Source of the DNA: an uncultured Desulfosarcina sp.
GTDB lineage: Bacteria; Desulfobacterota; Desulfobacteria; Desulfobacterales; Desulfosarcinaceae
Length of the DNA: 64,000 bases
Direction of reading: 5' to 3'
NCBI GenBank assembly: GCA_963674945.2
Contig: CAXXWQ010000002.1
Span: forward strand, 608,001-672,000
Shown here: positions 85-61,629 of the stretch, piece by piece
Layout of the letters: each line of letters begins with the position of its first letter
How positions within the stretch are numbered: position 1 is the stretch's first letter
Notes under the pieces: generated by a model
Databases searched by the model: none
Told to the model about the DNA's origin: nothing
What the model saw: the letters and a program-made list of their open reading frames with translations, nothing else
Made by a program: the position numbers and the translations under genes

Positions 85-134
85 GGTGTTGCCAAGCCGT
101 GCATTCCAATGAAAAATTCCAAATCACTAAACAA

Positions 135-345
135 CAGAAGTCAGAATGGCGATGTTGTCGCTGCGCTCCATCGTTTTTTTTCACATCGGCTGAGCCGAAG
201 GCGAACCCAAATTCTGGATTCTGGCCCCTGACGCCTGGATACTTTTTCTAATTTGTGATTTGGAATTTGTGTATTGGGATTTCTTCTTCAATGATGGAGC
301 GAAGCGACAGCATCGCCATTCCGGCTCCTGACGCCTGGATTCTCT
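135..345. repeat. Heptamer-arm palindromic element, empty, inverted relative to the other copies, plus an extra right arm
   Basis: CAGAAGTCAGAATGGCGATGTTGTCGCTGCGCTCCATCG (reverse S motif), short loop, GAGCCGAAGGCGAA (reverse P motif), TTCTGGATTCTGG; second S motif and arm at about 293-345. Confidence 0.8.
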
Positions 346-2096: not shown

Positions 2097-2347
2097 AGGA
2101 TTAGAATCCAGGAGTCAGAATTCAGAATACAGAAGTTGGCCCCGCCTTCGGCGCAGCCGAAAAGAATGTAACCACAGAGGACGCAAAAGAGCACAGAGAA
2201 AGAATCAAATTGCAGTTCTCTGTGGCCTCTGAATAAAGCATTACCTGAAAAGGTAGGCATCTTTACATTAGAAGGAGCGCAACGAAAAAATCGTCGTTCT
2301 GATTTCTGCTGTTCCGTAATTCGTTCCTTATTCAACGTTCGATGTTG
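2097..2347. repeat. Degenerate heptamer-arm element with internal CACAGAG/CTCTGTG hairpin cargo
   Basis: Colinear with 20936-21174: heptamer arm, CGCCTTCGGCG, ACCACAGAGGAC…TTCTCTGTG, CCTGAAAAGG, GGAGCGCAACG. Confidence 0.75.
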
Positions 2348-7804: not shown

Positions 7805-8185
7805 AAATTCCAAATCACAAAATAGAAAGAGAATTCAGGAGTCAGAAGTCAGAATCCAGGAGTTGGATTCGCCTTCGGCTCAATCGCCAAACAAAGCTGT
7901 AAATTCAGAATGTTGGGTGGAATAACCACCGGCATAAAAATTTCAAGACTTGATTGTATGGCAAAAAACTCATCAATTTGTTCTGGTTGTGCATCGCTAT
8001 AGTGAATCATTCCCTAAACATGAGATTTATGGGCTGACCTCACAATTATGAAACGAAGCGACAACATAGCCATTCTGAATTCTGACTCCTGGATTCTGGC
8101 TTCTGTAATTTTGGAATTTGGATATTGGTATTTTTCTTCTTCGAATAGCTCTTTCTAATGTTCGACGTTCGATTTTCAGCGTTCA
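7805..8185. repeat. Nested inverted-arm element enclosing a four-helix-bundle fragment
   Basis: AAATTCCAAATCAC; heptamer arm 7831-7862; P motif; cargo; CGAAGCGACAAC; reverse arm to 8105; TTTGGAATTTGG; TTCGACGTTCGA. Confidence 0.85.
7917..8048 (+). pseudogene. Four-helix-bundle gene, 5' fragment (copy 1)
   Basis: Encodes FQDLIVWQKTHQFVLVVHRYSESFPKHEIYGLTSQL, then joins directly to the S motif; homologous to 31789-32160. Confidence 0.85.
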
Positions 8186-8226: not shown

Positions 8227-8303
8227 TAAGCTCTAAGCTCTAAGCTCTAAGCTCTAAGCTCTAAGCTCTAAGCTCTAAGCTCTAAGCTCTAAGCTCTAAG
8301 CTC
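8227..8303 (+). repeat. Perfect tandem heptamer (TAAGCTC)11
   Basis: 77 bp counted directly. Confidence 0.97.
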
Positions 8304-8330
8304 TTGGATTCTGTATTCTGTAGTTTTACC

Positions 8331-11093: not shown

Positions 11094-11153
11094 GTGTGGG
11101 GAACAGATGAACGTTGACCATTGAATGTTGTGATCGCAAGCATTTTGACAAGA

Positions 11154-11301
11154 GAATTCAGGAGACGAAAATCAGAATCCAGGAGTCAGAAGTCAGAATC
11201 CAGAATGTGGATTCGCCTTCGGCTCAATCGATTTAAATAACGATGGAGCGAAGCGACAACCTATCTATTCTGGCTTCTGACTCCTGGATTCTGTATTCTG
11301 G
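11154..11301. repeat. Empty heptamer-arm palindromic element
   Basis: Left arm and GGATTCGCCTTCGGCTCAATC, 12-nt spacer GATTTAAATAAC, GATGGAGCGAAGCGACAAC and reverse arm. Confidence 0.92.
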
Positions 11302-12374: not shown

Positions 12375-12479
12375 CAAAAAATTCCAATAAACAAATTCCA
12401 AATCACAAATAAATTCCAATGACCAAATAACAAAACAGCAGAATTCAGGAGTCAGAAGTCAGAATCCAGAAGGTGGATT

Positions 12480-12605
12480 AGTTGTATTCAAACCGGGTGC
12501 TTTGCACCCGGAATCACCCCGAACGATGAAAGCACTAACGTGCTTTTGGATATCCGGCCCATGGCCGAATATCCAAGTCACCCGCTTTGCGGGTGATCGT
12601 TGACG
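12480..12605. other. 126-bp multi-hairpin insertion inside the P motif
   Basis: Four stems: CCGGGTGC/GCACCCGG, AAAGCAC/GTGCTTT, TTGGATAT…ATATCCAA, TCACCCGC/GCGGGTGA; second copy at 23463-23588. Confidence 0.75.
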
Positions 12606-12653
12606 CGCCTTTGGCTCAATCATAAATAAAGAGCTGGAAATCCAGAATGTAGA

Positions 12654-13017
12654 ATGAAACGAGCACCGGCAAAAATTTTCAGGACTTGATTGTATGGCAA
12701 AAAGCGCATCAATTTGTTTTGGCTGTGTATCGCTATAGTGAATCATTCCCTAAGAATGAGATTTATGGGCTGACTTCACAATTGAGAAGATCCGCTGTTT
12801 CAATTCCAGCGAACATCGCAGAAGGATTCAAGAAAAAGACCAGGCCAGACAAGGCAAGGTTTTTAAATATAGCACAGGGCTCCCTTGAAGAGACACGGTA
12901 CTATCTATTTTGGCAGCAGATCTCGGTTATGGTGAAAATGTTGAATTGGCAAACCAACTTCGGGAGATCAGTAAATTGCTGGAAGGTTACCTTTCTTCCA
13001 TTTTGCATTCTGTATAG
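12654..13017 (+). pseudogene. Four-helix-bundle gene with two 1-bp deletions (copy 2)
   Basis: A5 instead of A6 near codon 7 and a missing C in TATCT(C)ATT versus the intact copy; EIYGLTSQLRRSAVSIPANIAEG and GSLEE retained. Confidence 0.88.
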
Positions 13018-13060
13018 AGGCAACGGTAATATTCAAATTGAAGGAGCGAAGCGACACCTT

Positions 13061-13249
13061 CTCCTGGCTCCTGGCTCCTGGCTCCTGGCTCCTGGCTCCT
13101 GGCTCCTGGCTCCTGGCTCCTGGCTCCTGGCTCCTGGCTCCTGGCTCCTGGCTCCTGGCTCCTGGCTCCTGGCTCCTGGCTCCTGGCTCCTGGCTCCTGG
13201 CTCCTGGCTCCTGGCTCCTGGCTCCTGGCTCCTGGCTCCTGGCTCCTGG
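13061..13249 (+). repeat. Perfect tandem heptamer (CTCCTGG)27
   Basis: 189 bp counted directly. Confidence 0.97.
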
Positions 13250-13319
13250 ATTCTGACTCCTGGATTCTGAATTCTACAGTTTTGTGGTTAAAAAAAGTTA
13301 CCTGAAAACACAATCAATC

Positions 13320-19466: not shown

Positions 19467-19838
19467 CAGAATACAGGAGTCAGGAGTCAGAATCCAGAAG
19501 TTGGATTTGCCTTCGGCTCAATCATAAAAATGAGTTGGGGATCCATACGTTAGAATGAAACGACCACCGGCAAAAAATTTTCAAGACTTGATTGTGTGGC
19601 AAAAAGCGCATCAATTTGTTTTGGCTGTGTATCGCTATGGTAAAAATGTTGAATTGACAAATCAACTCCAGGATGTCAGCAAATTTTTGGAAGGTGACCT
19701 TTCTTCCATTTTGCAAACAGAAAATAGGTAATGCTAATATTTATATTAATAGATGGAGCGAAGCGACAACATCGCCATTCTGACTCCTGACTCCTGACTT
19801 CTGGATTCTGAATTCTGTATTTTTGTGATTTGGAATTT
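19467..19838. repeat. Filled heptamer-arm element (copy 3)
   Basis: Left arm, P motif, shortened four-helix-bundle gene, S motif, reverse arm, TTGTGATTTGGAATTT. Confidence 0.9.
19555..19731 (+). pseudogene. Four-helix-bundle gene with in-frame 195-bp internal deletion (copy 3, 58 aa)
   Basis: MKRPPAKNFQDLIVWQKAHQFVLAVYRY|GKNVELTNQLQDVSKFLEGDLSSILQTENR; junction at shared GCTAT. Confidence 0.88.
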
Positions 19839-20894: not shown

Positions 20895-21174
20895 CTACAA
20901 CTCCCAATGGCTAAATTCCAAACCATGAATGAAAAGAATTCAGGAGTCAGGAGTCAGAATCCAGAAGTCGGATCCGCCTTCGGCGCATCCGAAAAAAGGT
21001 AACCAAAGAGGACACAAAAGAGTACAGAGAACGAATCAAATTGTAGTTCTCTGTGTACTCTACTGCTCTCTGTAGTGAATAACGCATTGCCTGAAAAGGC
21101 AGGTGTCTTTACATTAGAAAGAGCGAAGCGATAACAACGCCATTCTGACTACTGACTCCTGGATTCTGGCTTCT
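20866..21174. repeat. Nested element with hairpin cargo
   Basis: AACATTGAACGTCCTACATCGAAC arm; heptamer arm from 20936; P variant; AGAGTACAGAGAAC/GTTCTCTGTGTACTCT hairpin; S variant; reverse arm. Confidence 0.85.
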
Positions 21175-22154: not shown

Positions 22155-22212
22155 GAATTCAGTAGTCAGGAGTCAGAATCCAGAATGTGGATTTGCCTTC
22201 GGCTCATTCGAT
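22155..22212 (+). repeat. Solo left arm (heptamers and P motif)
   Basis: GAATTCAGTAGTCAGGAGTCAGAATCCAGAATGTGGATTTGCCTTCGGCTCATTCG. Confidence 0.8.
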
Positions 22213-22270: not shown

Positions 22271-23359
22271 ATGAAAAAAAAATGTGCATTGATCACCGGT
22301 GTTACAGGACAAGATGGCGCCTATCTTGCCGAGTTTCTGCTGGGAAAGGGCTACGAGGTGCATGGGCTCAAACGGCGAACCTCGCTGATTAATACCGATC
22401 GAATCGATCACCTTTATCAGGACCCCCACGAAGAAGACCGGAGTTTTATTTTACATTACGGGGATCTGACCGATTCCTCCAGCCTGATCCATGTGATCGA
22501 AAAGGTCAAACCCGACGAAATTTACAACCTGGCTGCCCAGTCCCATGTGGCGGTTTCCTTTGAAGAGCCGGAATATACGGCCAATGCGGACGGCATCGGT
22601 GCATTACGGATCCTGGAAGCCATTCGGATCTTGGGCCTGACGAAAAAAACGAGGTTCTATCAGGCCTCCACTTCCGAGCTTTACGGACTCGTACAGGAAA
22701 TTCCCCAAACCGAGAAAACCCCCTTTTACCCCCGATCACCCTATGCGGTGGCCAAACTATACGCCTATTGGATAACGGTAAATTATCGGGAGGCCTATGA
22801 CATCTACGCATGCAACGGCATCCTGTTCAATCATGAGTCGCCCATTCGCGGGGAGACCTTTGTTACCCGGAAAATCACCCGAGGACTGGCCCGGATCAAG
22901 GCCGGGCTTCACGATTGTTTGTATATCGGAAATTTGAATGCGAAACGGGATTGGGGGCATGCAAAGGATTACGTGGAGATGCAGTGGCTTATGCTGCAGC
23001 AGGAAAAGGCCGCGGATTTCGTGATCGCGACCGGTGAGCAGCACAGCGTGCGGGAATTCATCTCGGTTGCCGCCGACCAGTTGGATATGTCCATCACCTG
23101 GGAAGGTGCCGGACCCGATGAGAAGGGATTTGATGAAAAGGGGCGGTGCATCGTTCGCGTCGATCCACGATATTTCCGCCCCACGGAGGTGGAGACGCTT
23201 CTGGGGGATGCGACGAAGGCGAAAGAGAAGTTGGGATGGACCCCCAAAATAACCTTCAAGGAGATGGTCGAAGAGATGGTGGCGGAGGATCTCAAAACCG
23301 CACAGCGGGACGAACTGGTCATGCGGCATGGGTTTCAGATCCACAATCATCATGAATAG
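22271..23359 (+). CDS. gmd: GDP-mannose 4,6-dehydratase
   Basis: [65 protein letters not shown]. Confidence 0.97.
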
Positions 23360-23636
23360 GGTGGCAGAATCAGAAGGTCGAACAATTAAATACAAATTCC
23401 AATATCCAAATAACAAAACAGCAGAATTCAGGAGTCAGAAGTCAGAATCCAGAAGGTGGATTAGTTGTATTCAAACCGGGTGCTTTGCACCCGGAATCAC
23501 CCCGAACGATGAAAGCACTAACGTGCTTTTGGATATCCGGCCCATGGCCGAATATCCAAGTCACCCGCTTTGCGGGTGATCGTTGACGCTCCTTTGGCTC
23601 AATCATAAATAAAGAGCTGGAAATCCAGAATGTAGA

Positions 23637-24001
23637 ATGAAACGAGCACCGGCAAAAATTTTCAGGACTTGATTGTTTGGCAAAAAGCGCATCGATTCGT
23701 ATTAGGTATGTATTGCTATACTGAATCATTTCCTAAAAGTGAGATTTATGGTTTGACATCACAATTGAGAAGATCATCCGTATCCATTCCAGCTAATATT
23801 GCAGAAGGCTTTAAAAAAAAGACGGTGCCTGATAAGGCAAAGTTTATGAACATAGCGCAAGGTTCTCTTGAAGAGACACGGTACTATCTCATTTTGGCGG
23901 CGGATCTTGGTTATGGTGAAAATGTTGAATTGACGAAGCAACTTCGGGAGGTCAGTAAATTGTTGGAAGGTTACCTTTCTTCTATTTTGCATTCTGTATA
24001 G
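23637..24001 (+). pseudogene. Four-helix-bundle gene (copy 4); 5' frameshift, 110-aa body intact from TTG 23669
   Basis: Same A5 tract as copy 2; VWQKAH, EIYGLTSQLRRSSVSIPANIAEG, AQGSLEETRYYLILAADLGY. Confidence 0.8.
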
Positions 24002-24044
24002 AGGCAACGGTAATATTCAAATTGAAGGAGCGAAGCGACACCTT

Positions 24045-24324
24045 CTCCTGGCTCCTGGCTCCTGGCTCCTGGCTCCTGGCTCCTGGCTCCTGGCTCCTGG
24101 CTCCTGGCTCCTGGCTCCTGGCTCCTGGCTCCTGGCTCCTGGCTCCTGGCTCCTGGCTCCTGGCTCCTGGCTCCTGGCTCCTGGCTCCTGGCTCCTGGCT
24201 CCTGGCTCCTGGCTCCTGGCTCCTGGCTCCTGGCTCCTGGCTCCTGGCTCCTGGCTCCTGGCTCCTGGCTCCTGGCTCCTGGCTCCTGGCTCCTGGCTCC
24301 TGGCTCCTGGCTCCTGGCTCCTGG
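24045..24324 (+). repeat. Perfect tandem heptamer (CTCCTGG)40
   Basis: 280 bp counted directly. Confidence 0.97.
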
Positions 24325-24384
24325 CTCCTCTCGTTTGTCTTTCTTGTAGTGGAAAACCATTACTCGACAAGGTAAGGTTCAACT

Positions 24385-25548
24385 ATGCAAAAAAACAGCA
24401 AGATCTACGTCGCCGGCCACAGGGGGCTCGTGGGATCGGCACTCATGCGAACGCTTCAAGCGCAGGGATATGGTAATATCGTCACCCGCACCCATGCCGA
24501 ACTGGATTTATGCGATCAAGCCGCCGTTCGAGATTTTTTCCAACAGGAGCAACCGGAATATGTCTTCCTTGCCGCGGCCAAGGTCGGCGGCATCTGGGCG
24601 AACAACACCTTTCCGGCGGAATTCCTCTATCAGAATATCAGCATCCAGAGCAATGTCATCCATTTTGCGAAACAAACCGGAGTTCGTCGTCTCCTGTTTC
24701 TCGGCTCCTCCTGCATTTACCCCCGCGATTGTCCCCAGCCGATGAAGGAGTCGTACCTGTTGACCGGACCGCTGGAATCAACCAATCGGCCCTATGCGGT
24801 GGCGAAGATCGCCGGTATCGAGATGTGCTGGTCGTACAATCGGCAATATGGAACGAAATACCTGGCCGTGATGCCGACAAACCTTTACGGTCCCAACGAT
24901 AGCTATGATCTGACAAATTCCCATGTGCTGCCCGCATTGATACGAAAGATTCACCTGGCGAAGCTGGCGAAAAATGGGGATCTGGAGGGGATTCGACAAG
25001 ACAGGGACCGAAGAGGGGATATACCCGTAGACGTGTTGCAAACCATCGGCGTTTCCGAAGATCTCTCGGCTTCCATCTCCGATGATGTGAAACTCGTCGT
25101 GTGGGGCACCGGATCTCCAAAGAGAGAGTTTTTGTACAGCGACGATATGGCCAGGGCGAGCCTGTTTCTGATGTCCCTTCCCGACAAGGAATTTGACAAT
25201 CTGGTAAGGGCCGAAGCGCTTCCGCTGATCAACATCGGGTGTGGCTATGATCTGACGATCAGAAAACTGGCTGAAACGATCCAGGACGTGCTCGGTTTTT
25301 CCGGGGAAATCATCTGGGACAAGAACAAGCCGGATGGTACGCCCCAAAAGCTATTGGATGTCGGCAACCTCTTTTCCCTGGGATGGAAACCAACCGTAAA
25401 TCTCGAAGCGGGCATCGCGGCGGCGTATGAGGATTACCTGAACGAAAGAATTCAGGAGCCGGAAGTCGGAATCCGGAAATCGCGGGTTTTATCGCCACAG
25501 ACACACACAGACGCACACAGACGAAATAGAGCCGATTCCAATTTTTAG
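24385..25548 (+). CDS. fcl: GDP-L-fucose synthase with repeat-derived C-terminal tail
   Basis: AGHRGLVGSA, AAAKVGGI, LGSSCIYP, MPTNLYGP.D, SHVLPAL, WGTG.P.REF, KPDGTP. Confidence 0.95.
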   Translation: MQKNSKIYVAGHRGLVGSALMRTLQAQGYGNIVTRTHAELDLCDQAAVRDFFQQEQPEYVFLAAAKVGGIWANNTFPAEFLYQNISIQSNVIHFAKQTGVRRLLFLGSSCIYPRDCPQPMKESYLLTGPLESTNRPYAVAKIAGIEMCWSYNRQYGTKYLAVMPTNLYGPNDSYDLTNSHVLPALIRKIHLAKLAKNGDLEGIRQDRDRRGDIPVDVLQTIGVSEDLSASISDDVKLVVWGTGSPKREFLYSDDMARASLFLMSLPDKEFDNLVRAEALPLINIGCGYDLTIRKLAETIQDVLGFSGEIIWDKNKPDGTPQKLLDVGNLFSLGWKPTVNLEAGIAAAYEDYLNERIQEPEVGIRKSRVLSPQTHTDAHRRNRADSNF

Positions 25549-25604
25549 CTCATTACACATCACTCATTACTGATCACTGATTTTTCCTCCGCGTCTCAGC
25601 GTGC
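25492..25604 (+). repeat. 113-bp direct repeat, copy A
   Basis: TCGCCACAGACACACACAGACGCACACAGACG…GCGTCTCAGCGTGC, identical to 26375-26487. Confidence 0.95.
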
Positions 25605-25729
25605 TCGAGCAAAGCGGGCGAGAAAAAGATCAGCGAAGCGACAACTTCGCCATTCTGACTCCTGGCTTCTGCAGTTGCAGTTCTCTGTGGTGAATAACGA
25701 ATTACCTGAAAAGGCAGGAACAATTAAAC

Positions 25730-25763
25730 TTGATAGTACTAAAAAATGTACTATAATACGTAC
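25730..25763 (+). promoter_or_regulatory. Putative TA promoter/operator
   Basis: TTGATA-16 nt-TATAAT overlapped by three GTAC cores spaced 12 bp apart (25736, 25748, 25760). Confidence 0.55.
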
Positions 25764-25789
25764 AAAATAAACATGCATGCGGGTGCAAT

Positions 25790-26071
25790 ATGCAAAGAAT
25801 AAAAATTGATCAGGATATTAAGCCCTTGTCGGAAGTTAGGACCGGAATTGCAAACTTCATAAAACAAGTTCATGATACAAAACGCCCATTGGTCATTACA
25901 CAGCATGGAAAAGGCGTGGCCGTGCTAATCGATGTTCATGAATATGAAGCGATCCAAAATCGGCTTGAGCTTTTGACAGATATCCAGTTAGGGCTGAACC
26001 AGATTGAAAACGGACAAGGAATCGATCAAGAAAATGCAAAGCAGATGGTTATCCAGCGAGCCTTACAATGA
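25790..26071 (+). CDS. Phd/YefM family antitoxin
   Basis: RPLVITQHGKGVAVLI..EYE motif; 93 aa; overlaps the toxin start. Confidence 0.9.
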   Translation: MQRIKIDQDIKPLSEVRTGIANFIKQVHDTKRPLVITQHGKGVAVLIDVHEYEAIQNRLELLTDIQLGLNQIENGQGIDQENAKQMVIQRALQ

Positions 26072-26364
26072 AAATTGTATGGTCTCCTCTTGCGATAGAG
26101 CGGACTTCAGAAATCGCGGGTTTTATTGCCAGAGACAAACCATCCGCTGCAGAAGAATGGATCGATACCGTTTTTCTGAAGGTCGAACAGCTATTGGACT
26201 CACCTGAGATCGGTAGGATTGTGCCCGAAATAAACAACAAGCAGTTTCGAGAGATAATTTATGGTAACTATCGAATTATTTATCGTGTCGAAATAAAGCG
26301 GATTTCAATTCTTACGATCCAACATGGGAACCAGATATTACCAATAAAGGAAATCTTGACATAA
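26068..26364 (+). CDS. RelE/ParE family toxin
   Basis: MKIVWS..A, P..GRIVPE, REIIYGNYRIIY. Confidence 0.9.
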   Translation: MKIVWSPLAIERTSEIAGFIARDKPSAAEEWIDTVFLKVEQLLDSPEIGRIVPEINNKQFREIIYGNYRIIYRVEIKRISILTIQHGNQILPIKEILT

Positions 26365-26374
26365 CAACATCTTT

Positions 26375-26487
26375 TCGCCACAGACACACACAGACGCACA
26401 CAGACGAAATAGAGCCGATTCCAATTTTTAGCTCATTACACATCACTCATTACTGATCACTGATTTTTCCTCCGCGTCTCAGCGTGC
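26375..26487 (+). repeat. 113-bp direct repeat, copy B
   Basis: Identical to 25492-25604. Confidence 0.95.
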
Positions 26488-26549
26488 AAAATTATATCAT
26501 AATTGTAATTATGCATTGCATTGTTACAAATTCATTGTATGATAGCACC

Positions 26550-27731
26550 ATGAAAACCAAATTCGTACCACGATTGCTTCGGATCCCCAATTATTCTTTT
26601 TTTCTTTTTGGTCCACGCGGTGTAGGGAAAACAACGGTTTTACGTAAGGTTTTGCCTGATGCCATTTTTTTTGATTTGCTTGAATCTTCATTGTATCTTG
26701 AATTATCACAAAATCCCGAAAACATAGAGGCCCTTATCGGAGATGCCGATAAGGGCGACTGGATCGTCATTGATGAAATTCAAAAAGTTCCTACCCTTTT
26801 GGATGAGGTTCACCGTTTAATTGAAAATAGAGACTGGAATTTTGCCCTATGCGGGTCATCAGCCAGAAAACTTCGGCAAGGTGGTGTGAATCTTTTGGCA
26901 GGTCGTGCCGTTACTCGAAACCTTGACGCATTTTCATTCAAGGAATTGGGCGACGACTTTGACTTAGATTTTTCTTTGGAATGGGGTCTCCTTCCAATAG
27001 TCCAGACCCATCGAAGGAATCCTTCTGATTTTTTAAGCGCTTACGTAGATACCTATCTTAAGGAGGAAATCAAAGAAGAGGGGATTGTTCGCCGTTTACC
27101 GCCCTTTTTACGATTTTTAAATATTGCCGGACAACTTAATGGTCAAATAGTAAATGCACAAAATATTGCCAGAGAGGCAAGCATACCCAGGAGTACGGTT
27201 GATGTTTATTTTTCCATTTTAGAAGATACGCTGCTGGGACACTTTCTGCCGGCCTATCGACCGGGTTTAAAAGTGCGAGAGCAGGCGCATCCAAAATTTT
27301 TTTGGTTCGATTCCGGGGTTTCTAGAGCGGCCTCAGGCCTTCTATTTGATCCGGTAGACCGCATTTGGAAAGGATCAAGCCTGGAGACACTGATTCTGCA
27401 CGAACTGAAAGTATACAACCATACGCAAGAAAAACATCGGGACATTTATTATTACAGAACAGGCAGTGGTGTTGAAATTGATTTTATAATTGAAACGCAA
27501 AAACGTCAGCAAACAAACCACCCACATGTGGTATGCATGGAAGTCAAACTGGCGGAAAAATGGGATCGACGGTGGGAGAAACCGATGCGTTCATTCAATG
27601 AAAATAAAAAAATTCACGTAGAACGGATGATTGGTGTTTATACGGGGTCCAGAAGTTATCATTTTGATGGCATAGATGTCCTGCCGGTTGATGCTTTCCT
27701 GAAGCAACTGCATTCAGGTAAAGTGTTTTAG
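26550..27731 (+). CDS. AAA+ ATPase with DUF4143-type C-terminal domain
   Basis: GPRGVGKT, IDEIQK, GSSARKL, LAGRA, KFFWFD.G, EIDFI…EVK. Confidence 0.9.
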   Translation: MKTKFVPRLLRIPNYSFFLFGPRGVGKTTVLRKVLPDAIFFDLLESSLYLELSQNPENIEALIGDADKGDWIVIDEIQKVPTLLDEVHRLIENRDWNFALCGSSARKLRQGGVNLLAGRAVTRNLDAFSFKELGDDFDLDFSLEWGLLPIVQTHRRNPSDFLSAYVDTYLKEEIKEEGIVRRLPPFLRFLNIAGQLNGQIVNAQNIAREASIPRSTVDVYFSILEDTLLGHFLPAYRPGLKVREQAHPKFFWFDSGVSRAASGLLFDPVDRIWKGSSLETLILHELKVYNHTQEKHRDIYYYRTGSGVEIDFIIETQKRQQTNHPHVVCMEVKLAEKWDRRWEKPMRSFNENKKIHVERMIGVYTGSRSYHFDGIDVLPVDAFLKQLHSGKVF

Positions 27732-27744
27732 TTTGGTTCCTTAT

Positions 27745-28107
27745 TCGACGTTCAATGTTGGGCGTTCGATGTTCGACGTTCATTCTTTGTTGGCTCCCTG
27801 TTCCCTGCTCCGAGATTTTTCCTATTTAGTGGTTGAAATCACACCCCCATCCAAGATATAGTGCCTGCATTCTAATGTAATCTGAGTGTTTCCCATGTTG
27901 CATTCGTTTAAATGTGTTGCAAAAATAATGAGTTATTTAAATACTATCCGTCCAATTCCATATTCCCGGAAATCACTTTTCTTAAGGCATAGATCCTTGT
28001 TTGCATTTTGACTATTGGGATTTGGAATTTATTTGTAATTTGGTGCTTGTGATTTGGAATTTTATTTATCGATTTGTTCCTAATTCGATGTTGAATGTTC
28101 GACGTTT
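27745..28107. repeat. Cluster of reverse (T-rich) arms
   Basis: TTCGACGTTCAATGTTGGGCGTTCGATGTTCGACGTT (7-mer period); TTGGGATTTGGAATTT…GTGATTTGGAATTT; TTCGATGTTGAATGTTCGACGTT. Confidence 0.75.
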
Positions 28108-28165
28108 ATTGGTAATTGGCGCCTGTTTTCTGACATCTTATAACTATTTTTTGAGATCTAAATTC

Positions 28166-31147
28166 ATGACTGAAAAACAACCCATCGATTGTCTGTTGAT
28201 TACGGGAATGCACCGAAGCGGTATGTCGGTGTTGTTGGAATGCCTCGATCTTCTCGGCGTGAGTATCGGGAAAAGCAAATCAGGCAAATATTCCGGCAAT
28301 GGCGCACAGACGACTGCCACGAATGAGATCACAACCACACACGACGTCCTGCTCAGAGATCTGGGGTGCAAGTGGGACATGGTCGGGGCCTTGCCCGGAG
28401 ATTGGATGGAGACCCGGGCGGCCAAGAACGCCAGGGAACGTGTCCGAAACATTATCAAGAACAATTTTTCCAAAAATGGACTCTGGGCCGTTGCCGATCC
28501 GCGATTGAGCCGGCTCATGCCCCTATGGCAGTCCGTGCTGCAAGAGATGAATTTGACCCCGGGATTCTTGTTGACCATACGCCACCCCTGGGAAGTCGCG
28601 CAATCATTGAAGAAGAACTGCCGGATGGATATCGGGCATGGCCATCTGCTTTGGCTGGCGCTAAACAAGGAAGCCTTTGATCTGTGCCAATCAAGCCCGT
28701 ACACGGTCACCACATATGACCAGCTGCTTGCAGATCCTTCGGCCATCTTAAACGATATCGCATCCCAGTTCGGTCTGTCCTTTCCGAATCCTCTGCAGAA
28801 ACAGATCTATCAGATATTGGATGTTGTCAGGCCGGAACACAAGCATCACCATCTGAGCGGATTTGACCGATCCGGTGACGATTGGGCATCATTTTCTCCT
28901 TTTTCATGGCTTTATGAACAGATTTCAAGCCATCGATCCGCCTTGAAGCTGCTTGTCCATGAAACCCCTGAGGATGTCGATGCAGATGCCATCACACGTG
29001 AAGCCATGCCGGCCCGTTTGTACCCGACGCCTCTTCCGATTGTCAGCCAGAACGCCGCAGTTCAAAAAGAGTCCAATCAGCAGGGCAACCGTTTATTCTA
29101 CCATTTCCTGCACCTGATCGGACAATATGAGCGTGAGCAACGGGACCTGGAGCTGAAAAAGATGCACCGGATCTTGCGCAGCACACGTGTTGAAGAGACC
29201 CTCTTTGCCAGACTCTGCATCCCATCCGAAGATGAGAACGCAAATGGTTTGAAGACAAGCGCCGAATCCCTTCTGCTAAAAAATGAATGGCAAAAGGTTC
29301 GTTTTTCCATTCCGAAACCAGAGCTGTTGCAAGCATCCAATCTCGAATTTGCTCCCATTAACACAAGGGGCGTCGTTTCCATATCAAAGATGACTCTGAT
29401 CAATGTTGCCACGGATGCGGAATACTGGAACGCATCCACCGAGGAAGGCTTCCAGTCAATCAAATTGAAGGACGCCATTCGGCTGCCCGGAAATGGTGCC
29501 TTCCAGGTAATGACCACAGGTGATAACGCAATACTCTCTTTGCCGGAGTTGCCTGATCTGCCGGATTGTCCGATTGCCTTTCAGGCATGGATAAAGGTGG
29601 ACACCAGCCAGAACATCGTCAACACCGCATGGCAAACCCTCCTGAATGAAAAGGATCAATTGGCAGCCAAGTTGGAAGGAGCCATGGCTGACCAACAGGC
29701 GATTGCAGCGAGGTTGAAAGAAAAAGAGCGTGAACTGGTGGCGGTATCGGAAAATAACGAAGCGAGCCGGTCTGCCTTGAAAAAGGAACGCGATACCCAT
29801 AAAGCCAAATCTGATCAACTTTCCAATGAACTGGAGAAAGTTCGACATGACCTCGATGCGCGAAATGCGGAAAACATTAAAATTCAACAAACTCTGGAAG
29901 AGCAAAGAAAAAAGGTACAATCTTTACAAGACGCATTATCCGAAAAAAACGGGACCAACGAGGCTTTATCCAAAAAGGTTGTAGAAATGGAGGAAGCTAA
30001 AAAAGCCTACACGCAAGCCCTTCGGGAGCGGGAATCGGAGAACGATAGTTACTGGCAGGCGCAAAGACGCCATGTAAAAGAAGTCGCCCTTCTTGAGAAG
30101 AAGGTCGGAGAGTTGGAGCGTGCTCTCGGTGCAGCCAAGGAAAATGTGGGTACTCGATTCAAGGAGCTTTCCATCATTACCCATTTATTGAAGGAACGAG
30201 AAGATGATGTAAACCAAAAAGAGGTCCAGTTGACTTCGCTGAAGAGGCAATTGGACCAGTCTTCCGACGAATTGGCGGCAAAAAACAGGCAACTCAACCA
30301 GTCTTCCGACGAATTGGCGGCAAAAGACAGGCAACTCGATTCATCCAGGGATCAGATCAAACATTTACAGCAGAATTTGGCCGGAATGTCCGCTTCGCTG
30401 AAAACCGCCAATGAGGAAAAGAAACTGCTGCACCGTAAACTTGTGCAACGGGACAAATCCATTCAAGCAAAAGATATCGTGATCGATCTGCAGCGCAAAC
30501 AGATGGAAAAGATCAAGGACTCGGCAACGTGGAAGGTAATGGCACCAGTCCGCGGATTGTCACGTCCCTTTAAAAAGTCCTCTCGAAGAATGGAACCAAT
30601 CGATGAGCAGATCGAGCAGATCCGGCAGTCGGACCTGTTCGATGCGAATTGGTATTTGGAGCAATATCCCGATGTGGCGGAGCATGGTTTGGATCCGGCG
30701 GAACACTATTTTCACTTCGGTGTATCCGAAGGAAGAGATCCCGGACCGGATTTTGATACGATCTGGTACATGAAGACATATCCGGATGTATCGGAAACGG
30801 GATTTAATCCTCTGGTGCATTACGTGAAATATGGAAAGGAAGAGGGGCGGCGTCCCAATGCGGGCAAACCCTTTGATGAACAAATAGGATTGGTAAAACA
30901 GTCTGAATTGTTCGATGCTTCCTGGTATCTGGAGCGATACCCAGATGTGGCAAGTCATAAATTGGATCCGGTGGAACACTATTTTTATTTTGGCGCTTCC
31001 GAAGGCAGGAATCCCGGACCGAATTTTAACACAGCCTGGTATGTGAAAACCTATCCGGACGTATCGGAGGCGGGGATGAATCCGTTGGTGCACTACTTGA
31101 CATTTGGGGAAAAGGAAGGGCGGAAGATTCAGCCGAACCAAAAATAA
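28166..31147 (+). CDS. Sulfotransferase-like domain, long coiled coil and C-terminal FDxxWYLxxYPDV repeats
   Basis: GMHRSGMS, DPRL, RHPWEVAQSL, YDQLL; heptad-rich middle with a 42-bp duplication near 30255-30338; duplicated C-terminal block. Confidence 0.75.
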   Translation: MTEKQPIDCLLITGMHRSGMSVLLECLDLLGVSIGKSKSGKYSGNGAQTTATNEITTTHDVLLRDLGCKWDMVGALPGDWMETRAAKNARERVRNIIKNNFSKNGLWAVADPRLSRLMPLWQSVLQEMNLTPGFLLTIRHPWEVAQSLKKNCRMDIGHGHLLWLALNKEAFDLCQSSPYTVTTYDQLLADPSAILNDIASQFGLSFPNPLQKQIYQILDVVRPEHKHHHLSGFDRSGDDWASFSPFSWLYEQISSHRSALKLLVHETPEDVDADAITREAMPARLYPTPLPIVSQNAAVQKESNQQGNRLFYHFLHLIGQYEREQRDLELKKMHRILRSTRVEETLFARLCIPSEDENANGLKTSAESLLLKNEWQKVRFSIPKPELLQASNLEFAPINTRGVVSISKMTLINVATDAEYWNASTEEGFQSIKLKDAIRLPGNGAFQVMTTGDNAILSLPELPDLPDCPIAFQAWIKVDTSQNIVNTAWQTLLNEKDQLAAKLEGAMADQQAIAARLKEKERELVAVSENNEASRSALKKERDTHKAKSDQLSNELEKVRHDLDARNAENIKIQQTLEEQRKKVQSLQDALSEKNGTNEALSKKVVEMEEAKKAYTQALRERESENDSYWQAQRRHVKEVALLEKKVGELERALGAAKENVGTRFKELSIITHLLKEREDDVNQKEVQLTSLKRQLDQSSDELAAKNRQLNQSSDELAAKDRQLDSSRDQIKHLQQNLAGMSASLKTANEEKKLLHRKLVQRDKSIQAKDIVIDLQRKQMEKIKDSATWKVMAPVRGLSRPFKKSSRRMEPIDEQIEQIRQSDLFDANWYLEQYPDVAEHGLDPAEHYFHFGVSEGRDPGPDFDTIWYMKTYPDVSETGFNPLVHYVKYGKEEGRRPNAGKPFDEQIGLVKQSELFDASWYLERYPDVASHKLDPVEHYFYFGASEGRNPGPNFNTAWYVKTYPDVSEAGMNPLVHYLTFGEKEGRKIQPNQK

Positions 31148-31171
31148 ATGACACAGAGAGCATAGAGAAAG

Positions 31172-31630
31172 ATGACTTCCAAATACGAAAATGAAATAAA
31201 AAAAATCGAAGAATCCGGCCTGTTTGACCCCGTTTGGTATCAAGCCGAATACCCCGATACACAATTTCTCAACATGACCCCCATCGAACACTATTTATGG
31301 CTGGGTGCAACATTGGGGCGCAATCCCTCTCCGAAATTCGATGTCGCCTTTTATTTAAAATCCTATCCGGAGGCAGCCAATTCCGGCATTAATCCATTGC
31401 TCTATTTCATTGAAAAGGGAAGGGCAGCAGGACACGAAACGGTTTCACCTGATGAAAAAGAAGAGAAAGAGTCGACTTATAAATCAGTTGATCTCCTTAT
31501 TGAGGAAGAAGAATTAAGGGAAGAAAATGAATTATTATTGCTCCAACTTCATCAGGTCCAGGAGGAACTGGAAACCTATTATCTGAAGTATCAGGAGCTG
31601 AAGAATCGTGTGGAAGAGAAGGAAGGGTGA
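31172..31630 (+). CDS. Small FDxxWY-repeat protein with coiled-coil tail
   Basis: SGLFDPVWY..EYPD, GRNPSPKFD..FYL..YP, ENELLLLQLHQVQEELE. Confidence 0.75.
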   Translation: MTSKYENEIKKIEESGLFDPVWYQAEYPDTQFLNMTPIEHYLWLGATLGRNPSPKFDVAFYLKSYPEAANSGINPLLYFIEKGRAAGHETVSPDEKEEKESTYKSVDLLIEEEELREENELLLLQLHQVQEELETYYLKYQELKNRVEEKEG

Positions 31631-31637
31631 AGAAAGA

Positions 31638-32354
31638 GAACGTCGAACATCGAACGTCCAACATCGAATATCGGATGATGTGGGTGCAAGCATACTGGGA
31701 GAGAATCCAGGAGTCAGGAGTCAGAATTCAGAATGTGGATTCACCTTCGGCTCAATCATAAAAATGAGTTGGGGATCCATACGTTAGAGTGAAACGACCA
31801 CCGGCAAAAAATTTTCAAGACTTGATTGTGTGGCAAAAAGCGCATCAATTTGTTTTGGCTGTGTATCGCTATAGTGAATCGTTCCCTAAGAATGAGATTT
31901 ATGGGTTGACCTCACAATTGAGAAGATCCGCTGTTTCAATCCCAGCGGACATTACAGAAGGCTTCAAGAAAAAGACGAAGCCTGACAAGGCAAGGTTTTT
32001 AAACATAGCACAAGGTTCGCTTGAAGAGACACGATACTATCTCATTTTAGCAGCAGATCTCGGCTATGGTAAAAATGTTGAATTGACAAACCAACTCCAG
32101 GAGGTCAGCAAATTGTTGGAAGGTTATCTTTCTTCCATTTTGCAAACAGAAAATAGGTAATGCTAATATTTATATTAGTAGATGGAGCGAAGCGACAACC
32201 TATCCATTCTGAATTCTGACTCCTGGATTCTGAATTCTGTTGTTTTGTAATTTGAGATTTGTTTGTAATTTGGTGCTTTTGTTTTGGAATTTAATCGGGA
32301 GCAAAGCGACAACCGCTCCATTCTGAATTCTGACTCCTGACTACTGAATTCTGA
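31638..32354. repeat. Filled heptamer-arm element (copy 5) around the intact four-helix-bundle gene
   Basis: AACGTCG/AACATCG arm; perfect 21-bp inverted repeat 31715-31735 / 32205-32225; P and S motifs; extra S and arm 32297-32354. Confidence 0.92.
31789..32160 (+). CDS. Four-helix-bundle protein (23S rRNA IVS protein / TIGR02436-type family)
   Basis: FQDLIVWQKA, FPKNEIYGLTSQLRRSAVSIP..I.EG, FLNIAQGSLEE, DLGY; 123 aa, GTG start. Confidence 0.9.
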   Translation: MKRPPAKNFQDLIVWQKAHQFVLAVYRYSESFPKNEIYGLTSQLRRSAVSIPADITEGFKKKTKPDKARFLNIAQGSLEETRYYLILAADLGYGKNVELTNQLQEVSKLLEGYLSSILQTENR

Positions 32355-32430
32355 AATGCTTTCGCTTTTTGTTCTCTCTGGTGAAAACAAAGATAACCTT
32401 TTATGATTTAGCCAAATATGGGAAACCTCG

Positions 32431-35115
32431 ATGCCCAATCCAACACTGGTAGAAGACGATAACGGTCTGATCCTTTTGGGTGCTCCCCGAAGCGGCCTCT
32501 CCCTGCTGTCAGGTTGTTTTCACCTGCTGGGAATGGATACTGGAGGAGCCGATCCGGAAGTGGTGAGGGAGATACATCATGAATTTTGTCGTGAACTCGG
32601 CGTGGACCTGTTGGCTTCAGATCAATTACCAATGGGGTGGCAAGATTCTGCTGCCGCTACAAATGCTCGCGGTAAAATTGTAGAGCTGCTTCGTTCCCTC
32701 GAAACATCTGAACAACCATGGATGATCGCCGATCCCTTCTTTTGCATGGTATTTCCATTATGGCGGGATTGCTTCGATGAATTGGAAATCGAACCAAGGT
32801 TTGTTCATTTGATACGTCATCCCTGGGAAACAGCCCAATCCATATCCTGTGATGAAAATATCGATTTGAAAACCAGCCACACGATTTGGATGGCATACAA
32901 TCAGGAACCATTGGCTATTCGGGCAGATTACCCTTACGTTTTGGTAACGCTCGATCAACTCCTTGCCGATCCCTTATCGGTTCTCACCAAAGTCAAATCG
33001 GCGTTATTCATAGAGTATCCAAATGATTTACGTACCGTGTATCCTGCAATACTGAATTCGGTTCGTCCTGGTGGCAAGCGTTTCAATGCAGGGGTTGCGA
33101 CGAGAGAGGATCGTGATGATTTCGGTCAATTTTTTCATGCTTATCAAGAATTCTGTGCGCTCCAGGTAGATGTCACGAAGGTGGTTGAATCGAATCCAGC
33201 AAAGAAAGGGATTAAAGCGAAGCTTCAAAAACTAACCCAAGATTTTGAAGAAAAAACAAAACTTCTCTCCGCGCTACAAGACAAGTTAGACCAAATTGAA
33301 AAATCTCGAGACGAAAAGGTGAAGCTTGTCAGTGACCGGCAGGCGGAAATCGACCAGCTAAAACAAACCTTGGCAGAAAGGATCAAGGAGTCGGAAGCGC
33401 ATCAAAGCCAGCTCGGTCAAATGACCAAGTCCCGGGATGAGCATGCGAAGCTGGCGGCCGACCGGCAAGTTCAGCTACAGGACCTTGCAAAGTCCCGGGA
33501 TGAACAGGTGAAGCTGGCAAATGGACGGCAGGCGGAAATCGACCAGCTAAAACAAACCTTGGCAGAAAAGATCAAGGAGTCGGAAGCGCATCAAAGCCAG
33601 CTCGGTCAAATGACCAAGTCCCGGGATGAGCATGCGAAGCTGGCGGCCGACCGGCAAGTTCAGCTACAGGACCTTGCAAAGTCCCGGGATGAACAGGTGA
33701 AGCTGGCAAATGGACGGCAGGCGGAAATCGACCAGCTAAAACAAACCTTGGCGGAAAAGATCAAGGAGTCGGAAGCGCATCAAAGCCAGCTCGGTCAAAT
33801 GACCAAGTCCCGGGATGAGCATGCGAAGCTGGCGGCCGACCGGCAAGTTCAGCTACAGGACCTTGCAAAGTCCCGGGATGAACAGGTGAAGCTGGCAAAT
33901 GGACGGCAGGCGGAAATCGACCAGCTAAAACAAACCTTGGCAGAAAAGATCAAGGAGTCGGAAGCGCATCAAAGCCAGCTCGGTCAAATGACCAAGTCCC
34001 GGGATGAGCATGCGAAGCTGGCGGCCGACCGGCAAGTTCAGCTACAGGACCTTGCAAAGTCCCGGGATGAACAGGTGAAGCTGGCAAATGGACGGCAGGC
34101 GGAAATCGACCAGCTAAAACAAACCTTGGCGGAAAAGATCAAGGAGTCGGAAGCGCATCAAAGCCAGCTCGGTCAAATGACCAAGTCCCGGGATGAGCAT
34201 GCGAAGCTGGCGGCCGACCGGCAAGTTCAGCTACAGGACCTTGCAAAGTCCCGGGATGAACAGGTGAAGCTGGCAAATGGACGGCAGGCGGAAATCGACC
34301 AGCTAAAACAAACCTTGGCAGAAAAGATCAAGGAGTCGGAAGCGCATCAAAGCCAGCTCGGTCAAATGACCAAGTCCCGGGATGAGCATGCGAAGCTGGC
34401 GGCCGACCGGCAAGTTCAGCTACAGGACCTTGCAAAGTCCCGGGATGAACAGGTGAAGCTGGCAAATGGACGGCAGGCGGAAATCGACCAGCTAAAACAA
34501 ACCTTGGCAGAAAAGATCAAGGAGTCGGAAGCGCATCAAAGCCAGCTCGGTCAAATGACCAAGTCCCGGGATGAGCATGCGAAGCTGGCGGCCGACCGGC
34601 AAGCGCAATTACAGAATTTGATGAAGGACCGAGACGAAAGGAGCAAGCAACTTGCTGATCGCCAAGCTCAATTGGAACAGCTCACTAAAGAAAGAGAAGC
34701 GCAAACAAAACTCGCAAATGATCGGAAAACACAGTTTGATCAGTTAAAGCAAGAATTGGAAAATAAGACAAAGGCGTCTGACGCTCTTCAGAGCCAAATC
34801 GTAAAGCTTGTTAAAACCCGTGACGAACAAGAAAAGTTGGCAGCCAATCGTGAGGAGCGAATTGAAAGCCTGACAAAGGACCAAGACGAAAAGGCCAATC
34901 AAATTGCTAATTACCAAACTCAATTGGAACAACTTACCAAAGAAAGAGACGCACAGGCGAAACTTGCCAAACAAAGTAAATCAAGAATAAAAGAGCTTGA
35001 AGAAAAAATTTTGGAAGCTGAAGGACGAAAACATCTATTCTCTGAGGAAATTGCCAGGGCAGAGGGTCAAATCGAATTCATTAAAGAGATTATTTTTTTG
35101 GAGTCTGAAAGATGA
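32431..35115 (+). CDS. Sulfotransferase-like domain plus very long tandem-repeat coiled coil
   Basis: LLGAPRSGLS, RHPWETAQSI; more than 600 aa of heptad-pattern sequence ending RAEGQIEFIKE. Confidence 0.75.
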   Translation: MPNPTLVEDDNGLILLGAPRSGLSLLSGCFHLLGMDTGGADPEVVREIHHEFCRELGVDLLASDQLPMGWQDSAAATNARGKIVELLRSLETSEQPWMIADPFFCMVFPLWRDCFDELEIEPRFVHLIRHPWETAQSISCDENIDLKTSHTIWMAYNQEPLAIRADYPYVLVTLDQLLADPLSVLTKVKSALFIEYPNDLRTVYPAILNSVRPGGKRFNAGVATREDRDDFGQFFHAYQEFCALQVDVTKVVESNPAKKGIKAKLQKLTQDFEEKTKLLSALQDKLDQIEKSRDEKVKLVSDRQAEIDQLKQTLAERIKESEAHQSQLGQMTKSRDEHAKLAADRQVQLQDLAKSRDEQVKLANGRQAEIDQLKQTLAEKIKESEAHQSQLGQMTKSRDEHAKLAADRQVQLQDLAKSRDEQVKLANGRQAEIDQLKQTLAEKIKESEAHQSQLGQMTKSRDEHAKLAADRQVQLQDLAKSRDEQVKLANGRQAEIDQLKQTLAEKIKESEAHQSQLGQMTKSRDEHAKLAADRQVQLQDLAKSRDEQVKLANGRQAEIDQLKQTLAEKIKESEAHQSQLGQMTKSRDEHAKLAADRQVQLQDLAKSRDEQVKLANGRQAEIDQLKQTLAEKIKESEAHQSQLGQMTKSRDEHAKLAADRQVQLQDLAKSRDEQVKLANGRQAEIDQLKQTLAEKIKESEAHQSQLGQMTKSRDEHAKLAADRQAQLQNLMKDRDERSKQLADRQAQLEQLTKEREAQTKLANDRKTQFDQLKQELENKTKASDALQSQIVKLVKTRDEQEKLAANREERIESLTKDQDEKANQIANYQTQLEQLTKERDAQAKLAKQSKSRIKELEEKILEAEGRKHLFSEEIARAEGQIEFIKEIIFLESER
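33337..34603 (+). repeat. Intragenic 189-bp (63-aa) tandem repeat, about 6.7 near-identical units
   Basis: Unit starts at 33337, 33526, 33715, 33904, 34093, 34282, 34471. Confidence 0.97.
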
Positions 35116-60223: not shown

Positions 60224-60662
60224 CCGAATCAAGGAGCATCTGAAGCACCTGAACAAATACTATTTGCTCTTATTGGAGTCCAGAAAAATACCATATGATC
60301 AATTCATGGTTAACCCCCTGCATCAGGGAAGCACCGAACGATTCCTTCAATTAGCCATTGAAAGCTGTATCAACATAGGAAATCGGTTGATCTCCTTATA
60401 TCAATTTACGAAGCCGGTTACGACACCGAATACGTACGCGGATATATTCAAAGAAATTGGAAAGTTGGGGGTCGTGGACAAAGAATTTTTGCAACGACTG
60501 ATCAAGATGGCAAGATTTCGTAACAGGTTGGTACACTTATATTGGGAAGTAGATATTGAAACGATCTATGACATTCTTCAGAATAACCTCGATGACTTCA
60601 AGCGGTTTCAAAAAGATGTGGTTGGTTTTTTAAAAGAAAATCCACTTCCTTTAAATGAATGA
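60216..60662 (+). CDS. hepT: HEPN/DUF86 RNase toxin (HepT-like)
   Basis: ER.LQ.AIE, P.TY.D.F, RNRLVH.Y (RX4HXY). Confidence 0.85.
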   Translation: MDDRIKEHLKHLNKYYLLLLESRKIPYDQFMVNPLHQGSTERFLQLAIESCINIGNRLISLYQFTKPVTTPNTYADIFKEIGKLGVVDKEFLQRLIKMARFRNRLVHLYWEVDIETIYDILQNNLDDFKRFQKDVVGFLKENPLPLNE

Positions 60663-60684
60663 AACATCTTCTATCGAGGTGATC

Positions 60685-61629
60685 ATGCCACGTATCTCAA
60701 GGATGATCATTACAGAGCAACCAACCGTCTACCATGTAATGTCCAGAACAGCACTAGACGGTTTTCCGCTACATGATTTCGAAAAAGATCATTTGGTAAA
60801 CTTGATCAAGCGGATGGGCAGTCTCTTTTTCACCGAAATGTATGGGTATTGCATCATGGGGAATCATTTCCATCTCTTAGTGAAGATGATTCCTGAGCAT
60901 CATTTCACCGACGAAGAAGTAAACGATCGTTTGATCAGATTCTACGGGGAGAAGAGGGCTCCAATGGGTGAGGGGCAGTTGCCAATCATGCGTCAAAAGT
61001 TGGAAAGCTTGTCGGAGTTTGTACGGGAAATAAAAGTCAATTTTACGCGTTTTTACAACAAACGCCATGGACGGAAAGGGTATTTCTGGGGAGATCGATT
61101 TAAGAGCGTGATCGTTGAAAAAGGAGAGACGCTGATCAATTGTCAAGCTTACATCGATCTTAATCCAATTAGAGCCGGTATCGTAGAAAAACCCGAAGAT
61201 TATCGCTGGTGTTCGCTGGGCTATCATATTCAGACCAATAACAAGGATGGATTTTTATCCACAGATTTTGGATTGAAGGAATTCAACGTAAGAAGGGAAA
61301 AAGAAAGAGTTCGGCGTTACCGGAAATATGTCCATGAAGCCGGTGCGATTCAGTCGGGAGACAAAACTTACGCAAAAACGATAAGCGAAAAGATCATTGA
61401 AAAGGAACGAAGGAAGGATTTCGAAATCACGCGTACAGATAGATTCATTTACCGTACGAGGTATTTTACAGATTCAGGAATTATCGGTTCGCGGGAGTTT
61501 GTATCGGTTAATTATAAGAAGTTTAAGCACTTGTTTCTATCAAAGCACGAGAAAAAACCGAAGCCGGTGAAGGGACTTGCTGGGGTATTTTCGTTAAAAC
61601 GTTTTTCTGAAAATGTTAATTTTCTTTGA
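60685..61629 (+). CDS. Y1 HUH transposase, RAYT/IS200-like
   Basis: MPR..R, YHVMSR, YCIMGNHFHLLV (HUH), FWGDRFKS, YIDLNP.RAG.V..PEDYRW.S. Confidence 0.88.
   Translation: MPRISRMIITEQPTVYHVMSRTALDGFPLHDFEKDHLVNLIKRMGSLFFTEMYGYCIMGNHFHLLVKMIPEHHFTDEEVNDRLIRFYGEKRAPMGEGQLPIMRQKLESLSEFVREIKVNFTRFYNKRHGRKGYFWGDRFKSVIVEKGETLINCQAYIDLNPIRAGIVEKPEDYRWCSLGYHIQTNNKDGFLSTDFGLKEFNVRREKERVRRYRKYVHEAGAIQSGDKTYAKTISEKIIEKERRKDFEITRTDRFIYRTRYFTDSGIIGSREFVSVNYKKFKHLFLSKHEKKPKPVKGLAGVFSLKRFSENVNFL

Follow-up and report, generated by a model that had tools for sequence, protein, structure and literature searches.

What lies between two repeat arms that recur close together in one genome, and can it be exchanged? 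In the stretch of 64,000 nt analysed here (the window), a first-pass annotation had described two sequences, P and S, that stand 12 nt apart at 11154-11301, enclose an intact gene at 31703-32239 and a non-coding hairpin at 20936-21174 and 2097-2310. It had proposed that the loop is an exchangeable slot, comparable to attC or REPIN-like sites, or else that the empty copy is a MITE-like deletion derivative. The answer towards which we lean, with somewhat better than even confidence, is that a dispersed hairpin with a short loop took up nested insertions in the capsule locus and that these loops were then swapped by recombination through shared arms.

The P-S hairpin and its nearly empty copy

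P and S are the two arms of one inverted hairpin repeat of about 130 bases (Table 1). P consists of a degenerate array of CAGGAGT/CAGAAT heptamers followed by a core that ends in GGCTCAATC; S begins with a core starting with GATGGAGCG, which is followed by an inverted heptamer array. The gap of 12 nt at 11154-11301 is confirmed (GATTTAAATAAC, 11230-11241), and the predicted fold of this copy is a single long hairpin with a terminal loop of 10 nt (RNA fold of -69.9 kcal/mol, z -10.3, none of 200 shuffles equally good). The outer flank at 11107-11153 can be aligned over 32 nt with 31638-31701, and 15 of 2000 shuffles were as good. No similarity was found between this flank and those of the copies at 19468, 7830 or 20935.

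Table 1. Coordinates of P-S features in the window
Feature	Position	Strand	Remarks
Outer GAAC-type heptamer arm and linker	11107..11153	+	Related to 31638-31701
P arm, empty copy	11154..11229	+	CAGGAGT/CAGAAT array, linker, core ending GGCTCAATC
12-nt loop	11230..11241	+	Short AT-rich type, found in further empty copies
S arm, empty copy	11242..11301	+	Core GATGGAGCGAAGCGAC, private linker, inverted heptamer array
Second empty window copy	134..243	-	16-nt loop, nested in CCAAAT-type hairpin
P arm without S	22155..22209	+	
Extra S arm behind CCAAAT-type arm	32296..32352	+	Like the solo S arms at 294, 15588, 25628
P arm of gene-filled copy	31702..31757	+	Genome's closest P arm to 11154..11229, 29/31
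Four-helix-bundle ORF, 123 aa	31789..32160	+	PF05635, TIGR02436; GTG start, N54D
S arm of gene-filled copy	32182..32239	+	14-mer in common with 11242..11301
P-S copy, 229-nt loop	19468..19805	+	Gene with 195-nt internal deletion at GCTAT microhomology
P-S copy, 162-nt loop	7830..8104	+	5' part of gene with stops; 3' part gone up to S core
Gene-filled copy	12439..13275	+	P interrupted by another hairpin module; gene lacks 1 nt at two sites
Near-duplicate of 12439 copy	23422..24335	+	Gene frameshifted near start
P-S copy, 127-nt loop	20935..21174	+	CCACAGAG-type hairpin inside
P-S copy, degenerate S	2103..2310	+	114-nt loop, CCACAGAG-type hairpin

A genome-wide family with mostly empty loops

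Searched with profiles that were constructed from 50 P and 36 S seeds, the 7.08-Mb genome yielded 79 matches to P and 78 to S that cover the core. Chance is excluded as their source, because the reversed genome yielded no core-covering match of either arm. Pairing of the matches resulted in 66 pairs, of which one mis-pairing of 741 nt was dropped; the window copies at 2103, 12439 and 23422 escaped this step and were included after visual inspection. The loop measures 10–17 nt in 54 of the 65 pairs (exactly 15 nt in 38), 22–44 nt in four and 124–424 nt in seven. Among the matches listed, most copies with a 15-nt loop belong to a subfamily of about 290 bp with further outer inverted ends.

From relatives in the genus, 40 regions were fetched, the selection being based on exact matches to the P core and on preceding blast hits. 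Both arms were called in 24 of these, always with a loop of 12–24 nt, and the four-helix-bundle gene was absent from all 40. Similarly, 19 metagenome matches included five with S 18 nt downstream and none with the gene. Since short loops are found in 54/65 pairs here and in all 24 calls from relatives, the empty state is the normal one, and the empty form is dominant in this genome as well as in its relatives. Loop length is set per genome and differs between genomes, with 15 nt here and 18 nt in most copies of the relative G025. Across 300 other genomes of the order the exact pattern of P core and S core, a match that misses diverged copies, did not occur.

For 32 elements of relatives the flanking genes were compared with this genome. 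In 12 cases both flanks are adjacent here, and all 12 gaps lack a P-S; one side matched in seven (one of them near a P-S), the flanks were not adjacent in one and no match was obtained in 12. As all 12 orthologous gaps are bare here, whole elements come and go at gene junctions. Orthologous gaps without P-S exist for a comparison of target-site duplications, but in relatives that are only 67–85% identical. Next to pcm and yqaA, no core-covering P or S match was seen among the flanks listed from 29 relatives.

The S core also heads another heptamer family (GAACGTC/GACGTTC type) at no fewer than 14 places in the genome, for instance C3:1033976, C4:511424 and C4:1648260; cores and arrays are therefore separable modules. 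A further module of about 65 nt with two small hairpins is located inside the P heptamer array of at least ten copies; two copies have it in reverse orientation within the S array (C1:8858, C2:182633, C2:562201 and C3:442488 are among the copies that carry it).

According to a crude ORF caller, 52 of the 58 short-loop pairs are situated outside ORFs. Divergent gaps are avoided (3/58 versus 13.8 expected, 24%) and convergent gaps are favoured (19/58 versus 10.1 expected, 17%; p 0.0003). This distribution would suit an element that is kept for an effect in RNA, whose arms would pair in the capsule mRNA and would likely be cut by RNase III in analogy to rRNA intervening sequences; as the loop would then be excised from the mRNA and degraded, it would be nearly neutral cargo. 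The predicted folds of the filled copies, in which the arms pair around the loop (25–37 arm-to-arm pairs in four out of five, 11 in the fifth), are in agreement with such an effect, and so are the rRNA intervening sequences themselves, which, in the part of PMC4990558 used here, hold the same gene family in a stem-loop replacing a small loop. However, there is no bias of G-U over A-C on either strand (119 vs 141, p 0.19). Moreover, in co-directional gaps 28 of 36 empty copies are oriented against transcription whereas the capsule-locus copies are oriented with it, and because the two groups face opposite ways no one strand is preferred. An RNA effect would account for the tolerance of a loop but not for its movement, and we regard it as quite improbable.

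Filled copies in the capsule locus

The loops of filled copies contain a four-helix-bundle gene or other hairpin repeats. Five copies bear the gene in whole or in part, four more than annotated before; the genome-wide empty family is likewise an addition. All five are found at 7.8–32.2 kb of the window, within the capsule locus, and the neighbours of the gene at 31789-32160 are genes for capsule export and glycosyltransferases. At 31703-32239 the arms indeed surround 423–424 nt with an open ORF of 123 codons. The description of this gene as intact needs qualification, given its GTG start and its Asp at residue 54, a site that is occupied by Asn in 78 of 80 relatives and by Asp in none.

The gene copies at 7830, 12439, 19468 and 23422 are all broken. 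Those at 12439 and 23422 have in common a frameshift near the start of the gene, and the two copies are identical at their ends and 12% diverged in the middle; the S array of the 12439 copy has grown into a long CTCCTGG run. At 19468 and 7830 the gene is partially lost, with breakpoints within the gene, one of them at a 5-nt microhomology. Gene-bearing loops decay via ordinary deletions and frameshifts.

The loops at 20936 and 2097 contain a hairpin of the CCACAGAG...CTCTGTG type, 127 nt and 114 nt in size. This cargo is as annotated, with the qualification that the cores are degenerate on both sides (GGCGCATCC/GGCGCAGCC at 20936, AAAGAGCG/AAGGAGCG at 2097). In total, the CCACAGAG hairpin occupies the loops of three copies within 27 kb. 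A heptamer hairpin of CCAAAT type fills the loops of several copies elsewhere in the genome; as this family is located outside P-S in the capsule locus, the nesting order varies. Between the same cores at least five loop types are found.

Two junction elements of about 900 bp (12375-13290 and 23358-24340) are near-duplicates, 10,983 nt apart, and both end in a long perfect CTCCTGG run. These duplicates may form a hot spot where the intervening genes are subject to slippage or deletion. Furthermore, because like-oriented P-S copies stand at about ten capsule junctions, P-S copies may serve as recombination points at which capsule genes are reshuffled.

Discordant histories of arms and loops

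That cargo boundaries fall at about the same place had been claimed in a partly circular way, because P and S were defined as the conserved part. Non-circular support comes from the discordance between arms and loops. Among the 66 pairs, the arms of the empty copy at 11154 and of the gene-filled copy at 31703 are mutual best matches (P 29/31, S 30/33), and a 14-mer in their S arms occurs at these two sites of the genome only. Both group in a clade of ten members that mixes gene, hairpin and short loops (97/90; this support is rough, as the arm tree comprises 64 columns with unsettled bootstrap, and the sister fork of 11154 and 31703 has an SH-aLRT of 74). The loop of the 31703 copy, on the other hand, is 222/229 identical to that of the 19468 copy, whose linkers match those of the 31703 copy at only 4/6 and 4/7 positions and whose 5' flank is unrelated. 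The empty loop at 11154 matches the loop of the empty copy C2:215312 at 11 of 12 positions and has with the gene-filled loop no common prefix and one common terminal base. Judged by these alignments, it cannot be derived from the gene loop by one deletion, and the idea of a simple deletion derivative has to be given up for this copy.

Arms and loops have, as far as sequence can tell, discordant histories, the basis being linkers of 6–7 nt, one 14-mer and a flank of 32 nt. Because of this discordance and the insufficiency of a single deletion, a loop must have been transferred at least once, in one direction or the other, with junctions inside the cores. The notion of an exchangeable slot thus holds insofar as loops differ between close arm pairs and at least one has moved, but not in the sense of a precise cassette-type loss. 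Recombination among paralogues is evident in the locus, because a private S linker is common to the gene loop of the 12439 and 23422 copies and to a 44-nt loop, and because the gene copies have a mosaic build, their ends being identical and their middles diverged. Some elements combine a P of the major type with an S of the locus type. Signs that ends of the empty loop are retained in the gene loop are weak, with p 0.002–0.004 in one copy among 28 tests, and nothing of the kind is seen in the loop of the 31703 copy. Homology between gene-loop tails and hairpin loops gave p 0.02–0.7 in single tests, which is not significant over 36 comparisons.

Four public sequencing runs (X1, X3, X4 and X6) were compared with 24400-33200. 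In X1, X3 and X4 the long pieces listed are identical to the window, and these runs therefore look like the same strain; X6 contributed short pieces, mostly of repeat parts. No second strain was found. One X3 contig spans 31640-32139 with the gene in place. No loop excision was detected in the contigs of the four runs, in which rare variants are not visible, and the filled allele alone was seen. Precise cargo loss, which had been put forward as a check, is thus not borne out by these contigs, nor by the partial losses described above. A joint that skips from 31757 to 32181 was rejected as an excision because it carries the 12-nt loop of the 11154 paralogue at single-copy depth, and joints that go back were attributed to neighbouring paralogues.

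Both junctions of the inferred swap are confined to 18–21 nt of shared core. Shared sequence of this length is short for homologous recombination, and the span fits an enzyme acting on the core equally well. The cores could, according to such a view, be the recognition sites of a hairpin-specific recombinase or nuclease and the loop a true exchangeable slot; a dedicated enzyme has to be considered since both junctions lie within about 20 nt, loops of several unrelated types are attached to the cores at nearly the same points, and the constancy of loop length per genome points in the same direction. Integron attC sites possess core boxes (RYYYAAC and GTTRRRY) at the ends of their hairpin, however, and these boxes are present in 0 of 58 elements on either strand, which also speaks against the suggested attC likeness. 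Neither P nor S was present beside any of three tyrosine-transposase-like genes, both partial losses have a break inside the gene, and the only skipping joint in the runs belongs to the 11154 paralogue. On balance we hold a dedicated core-acting enzyme to be unlikely.

The four-helix-bundle gene and its heptamer arms

The product of 31789-32160 matches PF05635 with 125 bits (cut-off 33.8) and TIGR02436 with 118 bits (cut-off 24), and is homologous to structure 2GSC (E 3e-21). With the Avd model NF033474 it reaches an E of 7e-6 and 26.3 bits, below the cut-off of 80 bits; the protein appears weakly Avd-like. Its relatives were examined as the best 80 of 502 confirmed ones, which come from many phyla. 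In 63 of these 80 at least two P-class heptamers are found upstream and at least two inverted ones downstream, whereas the same arms occur in 1/78 and 0/76 distant control windows. At the same 80 loci the profiles detected no P or S core. This genome has five other members of the family, and at least four of them possess, by eye, different repeat arms. Inside the cores, the local gene in P-S has short heptamer remnants at start and stop which fit the flank consensus of the 80 relatives. We infer that a P-S hairpin already in existence took up an armed gene in its loop, and that gene and P-S share their heptamer class by descent or affinity.

In another reading, the gene-filled element would be the parent and the empty copies would be MITE-like deletion derivatives, with the Avd-like protein helping to copy or protect elements with cognate arms, possibly by means of a borrowed enzyme. 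For this speak the paired heptamers of the relatives against the controls, the different arms of the other family members and the fact that the P-S arms carry the heptamer class of the gene's own subfamily. Yet the cores are missing at all 80 loci. G025 has 13 exact matches to the P core and G032, a complete genome, has seven, but neither has a gene match at E<=1e-25; G033 has a close gene but no P-core match. In addition, all five local gene copies are broken or altered, and no catalytic activity is known for the PF05635 family according to the part of PMC4990558 used here. A gene-bearing parent appears rather unlikely to us. Throughout the genus no link was seen between the number of empty copies and the presence of the gene. 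A role of the protein is suggested by the coupling to arms across phyla, not by the copy numbers in the genus.

At an orthologous site, G006 (L095, 960-1420) holds a four-helix gene that belongs to another subfamily and has 8-mer arms. In G010 (L216, 1060-1200) this 8-mer-armed gene is absent and the upstream arm is kept; the gap is bare in the genome studied here.

How loops could have moved

In the explanation that we prefer, nested insertion followed by recombination through shared arms, a four-helix-bundle gene that brought along short heptamer arms would have entered a P-S loop once, and the composite of gene and P-S would then have been copied to several junctions of the capsule locus. 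Loops would have passed from one arm type to another when paralogues underwent gene conversion or break repair whose junctions lay in the cores of about 20 nt, and the boundaries of the loops would coincide because homology ends there. Gene-bearing loops would subsequently be eroded by deletions at short homologies. When replication gives rise to a hairpin in E. coli, SbcCD cleaves it and homologous recombination repairs the break, as described in the part of PMC4125073 used here. A break at the hairpin tip that is repaired from a paralogue would yield a loop replacement, and by analogy a cut of SbcCD type with repair from a paralogue may have replaced the loop here. The sole match in a profile search for SbcD was below cut-off, and no mobilising enzyme for the P-S element was found.

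One may go further and regard four-helix (Avd-like) genes with subfamily-specific heptamer arms as selfish cassettes without an enzyme, which would home into the loops of multi-copy hairpins when a tip break is repaired from a filled paralogue; the cores would be the site of exchange and rRNA intervening sequences a special case. We think this generalization improbable. If true, the gene would spread like a homing element without a nuclease of its own, and this class of cassettes would be undescribed. Since loop content changes between paralogues, the locus offers a compact and testable system for gene movement without a known enzyme. It also links three loose ends, which are the abundant intergenic 7-mer repeats, the functionless PF05635 family and the rRNA intervening sequences.

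Other repeats in the vicinity

The pcm-yqaA gap (1135-1403) is 274 nt long here versus 7–29 nt in the relatives shown, and it contains two copies of another dispersed repeat of about 150 bp that is abundant across the genus. Gene-less inverted 8-mer arrays are present in the gap after yqaA in L123 and L128, with a remnant here at 2031-2085; because this remnant adjoins a P-S copy, the junction after yqaA attracts different repeat families. A perfect run of CTAAGCT heptamers (8227-8304) is located just upstream of a glycosyltransferase gene, and its length could vary.

Repeats of the CACACAGAC type occur at 25483, 26366, 59530 and 63507, near a Phd/ParE pair, AAA_14-DUF4143 genes and an MNT/HEPN pair, and flank the genome's GxxExxY gene in tandem. 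The CCACAGAG hairpin was compared with 28 GxxExxY loci as a possible empty form of their arms; the gene usually lies between hairpins, and related 9-mer hairpins flank many of the loci by eye (motif count 3–7 of 28). Seven tandem repeats of 189 nt (33277-34710) are contained in an 894-aa ORF at 32431.

Comparison with known systems

REPINs are REP doublets that form hairpins (PMC3116915). P-S is like the REPIN and REP-TIR elements of the passages used from PMC3116915 and PMC3733652 in its inverted arms, fixed spacer, intergenic position, many copies, lineage-specific sites and mutual nesting. The suggested REPIN likeness is borne out in build, by the hairpin and its z value, and in placement, which is intergenic and favours convergent gaps; doublets are formed by 65 pairs from 79 P matches, dispersed and mostly extragenic. 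Unlike in REPINs, the arms are degenerate 7-mer arrays with a core, and the loop can hold a whole gene. Inspection of the P and S consensus revealed no GTAG or CGTC tag. As to a linkage with RAYT genes, neither the two PF01797 matches nor the gene at 60655-61629 have P or S in their flanks. The latter encodes 324 aa, and its Y1/RAYT-like match is partial and falls short of the NCBIfam cut-off.

Intervening sequences with an ORF in 23S rRNA resemble the filled copies in that a PF05635/S23p gene sits in the loop of a long stem, a short loop is found elsewhere and the gene decays (PMC4990558, in part). The host of the P-S loop differs, being not rRNA but an intergenic repeat that is dispersed and here lies in a capsule operon. 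Rfam gave no match in the window at gathering thresholds. Paired intergenic heptamer repeats have been described for Xanthomonas (GGGAATC, PMC4692102) and Beggiatoaceae (TAACTGA, PMC4679880). Common to these and to P-S are the intergenic 7-mer arrays, which in Xanthomonas often form convergent pairs capable of a stem-loop (PMC4692102); the P-S heptamers differ from both motifs. A term search of PMC4679880 yielded no four-helix or intervening-sequence gene, none is named in the passages of PMC4692102 used here, and loop exchange is not described in these portions of either article.

With the Avd of diversity-generating retroelements (DGR) the protein shares a homologous four-helix fold (PMC10053308, in part), but the window is without a reverse transcriptase, and the three RT matches of the genome are on other contigs, C3 and C4. 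Like an integron attC, P-S is an imperfect inverted repeat that forms a single-strand hairpin between genes; its variable part, however, is inside the hairpin, whereas that of attC is between hairpins, and no integrase adjoins the locus. One integron-integrase-like gene exceeds the TIGR02249 cut-off, on another contig (C3:2206227-2207282). A major-type empty P-S follows its stop codon and none is present on its 5' side, where two small oppositely oriented genes are located. As for MITEs, no parent transposase was found between the arms, PF05635 being the only gene found there.

A search of open-access full texts found neither the P-S system nor a cassette of gene and heptamer arms described. 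The window contributes the P-S hairpin family with its inner cores and the sequence evidence for loop exchange between arms. The closest fit is a REPIN-like repeat with nested loop insertions that were likely swapped by recombination, and which resembles an rRNA intervening sequence outside rRNA.
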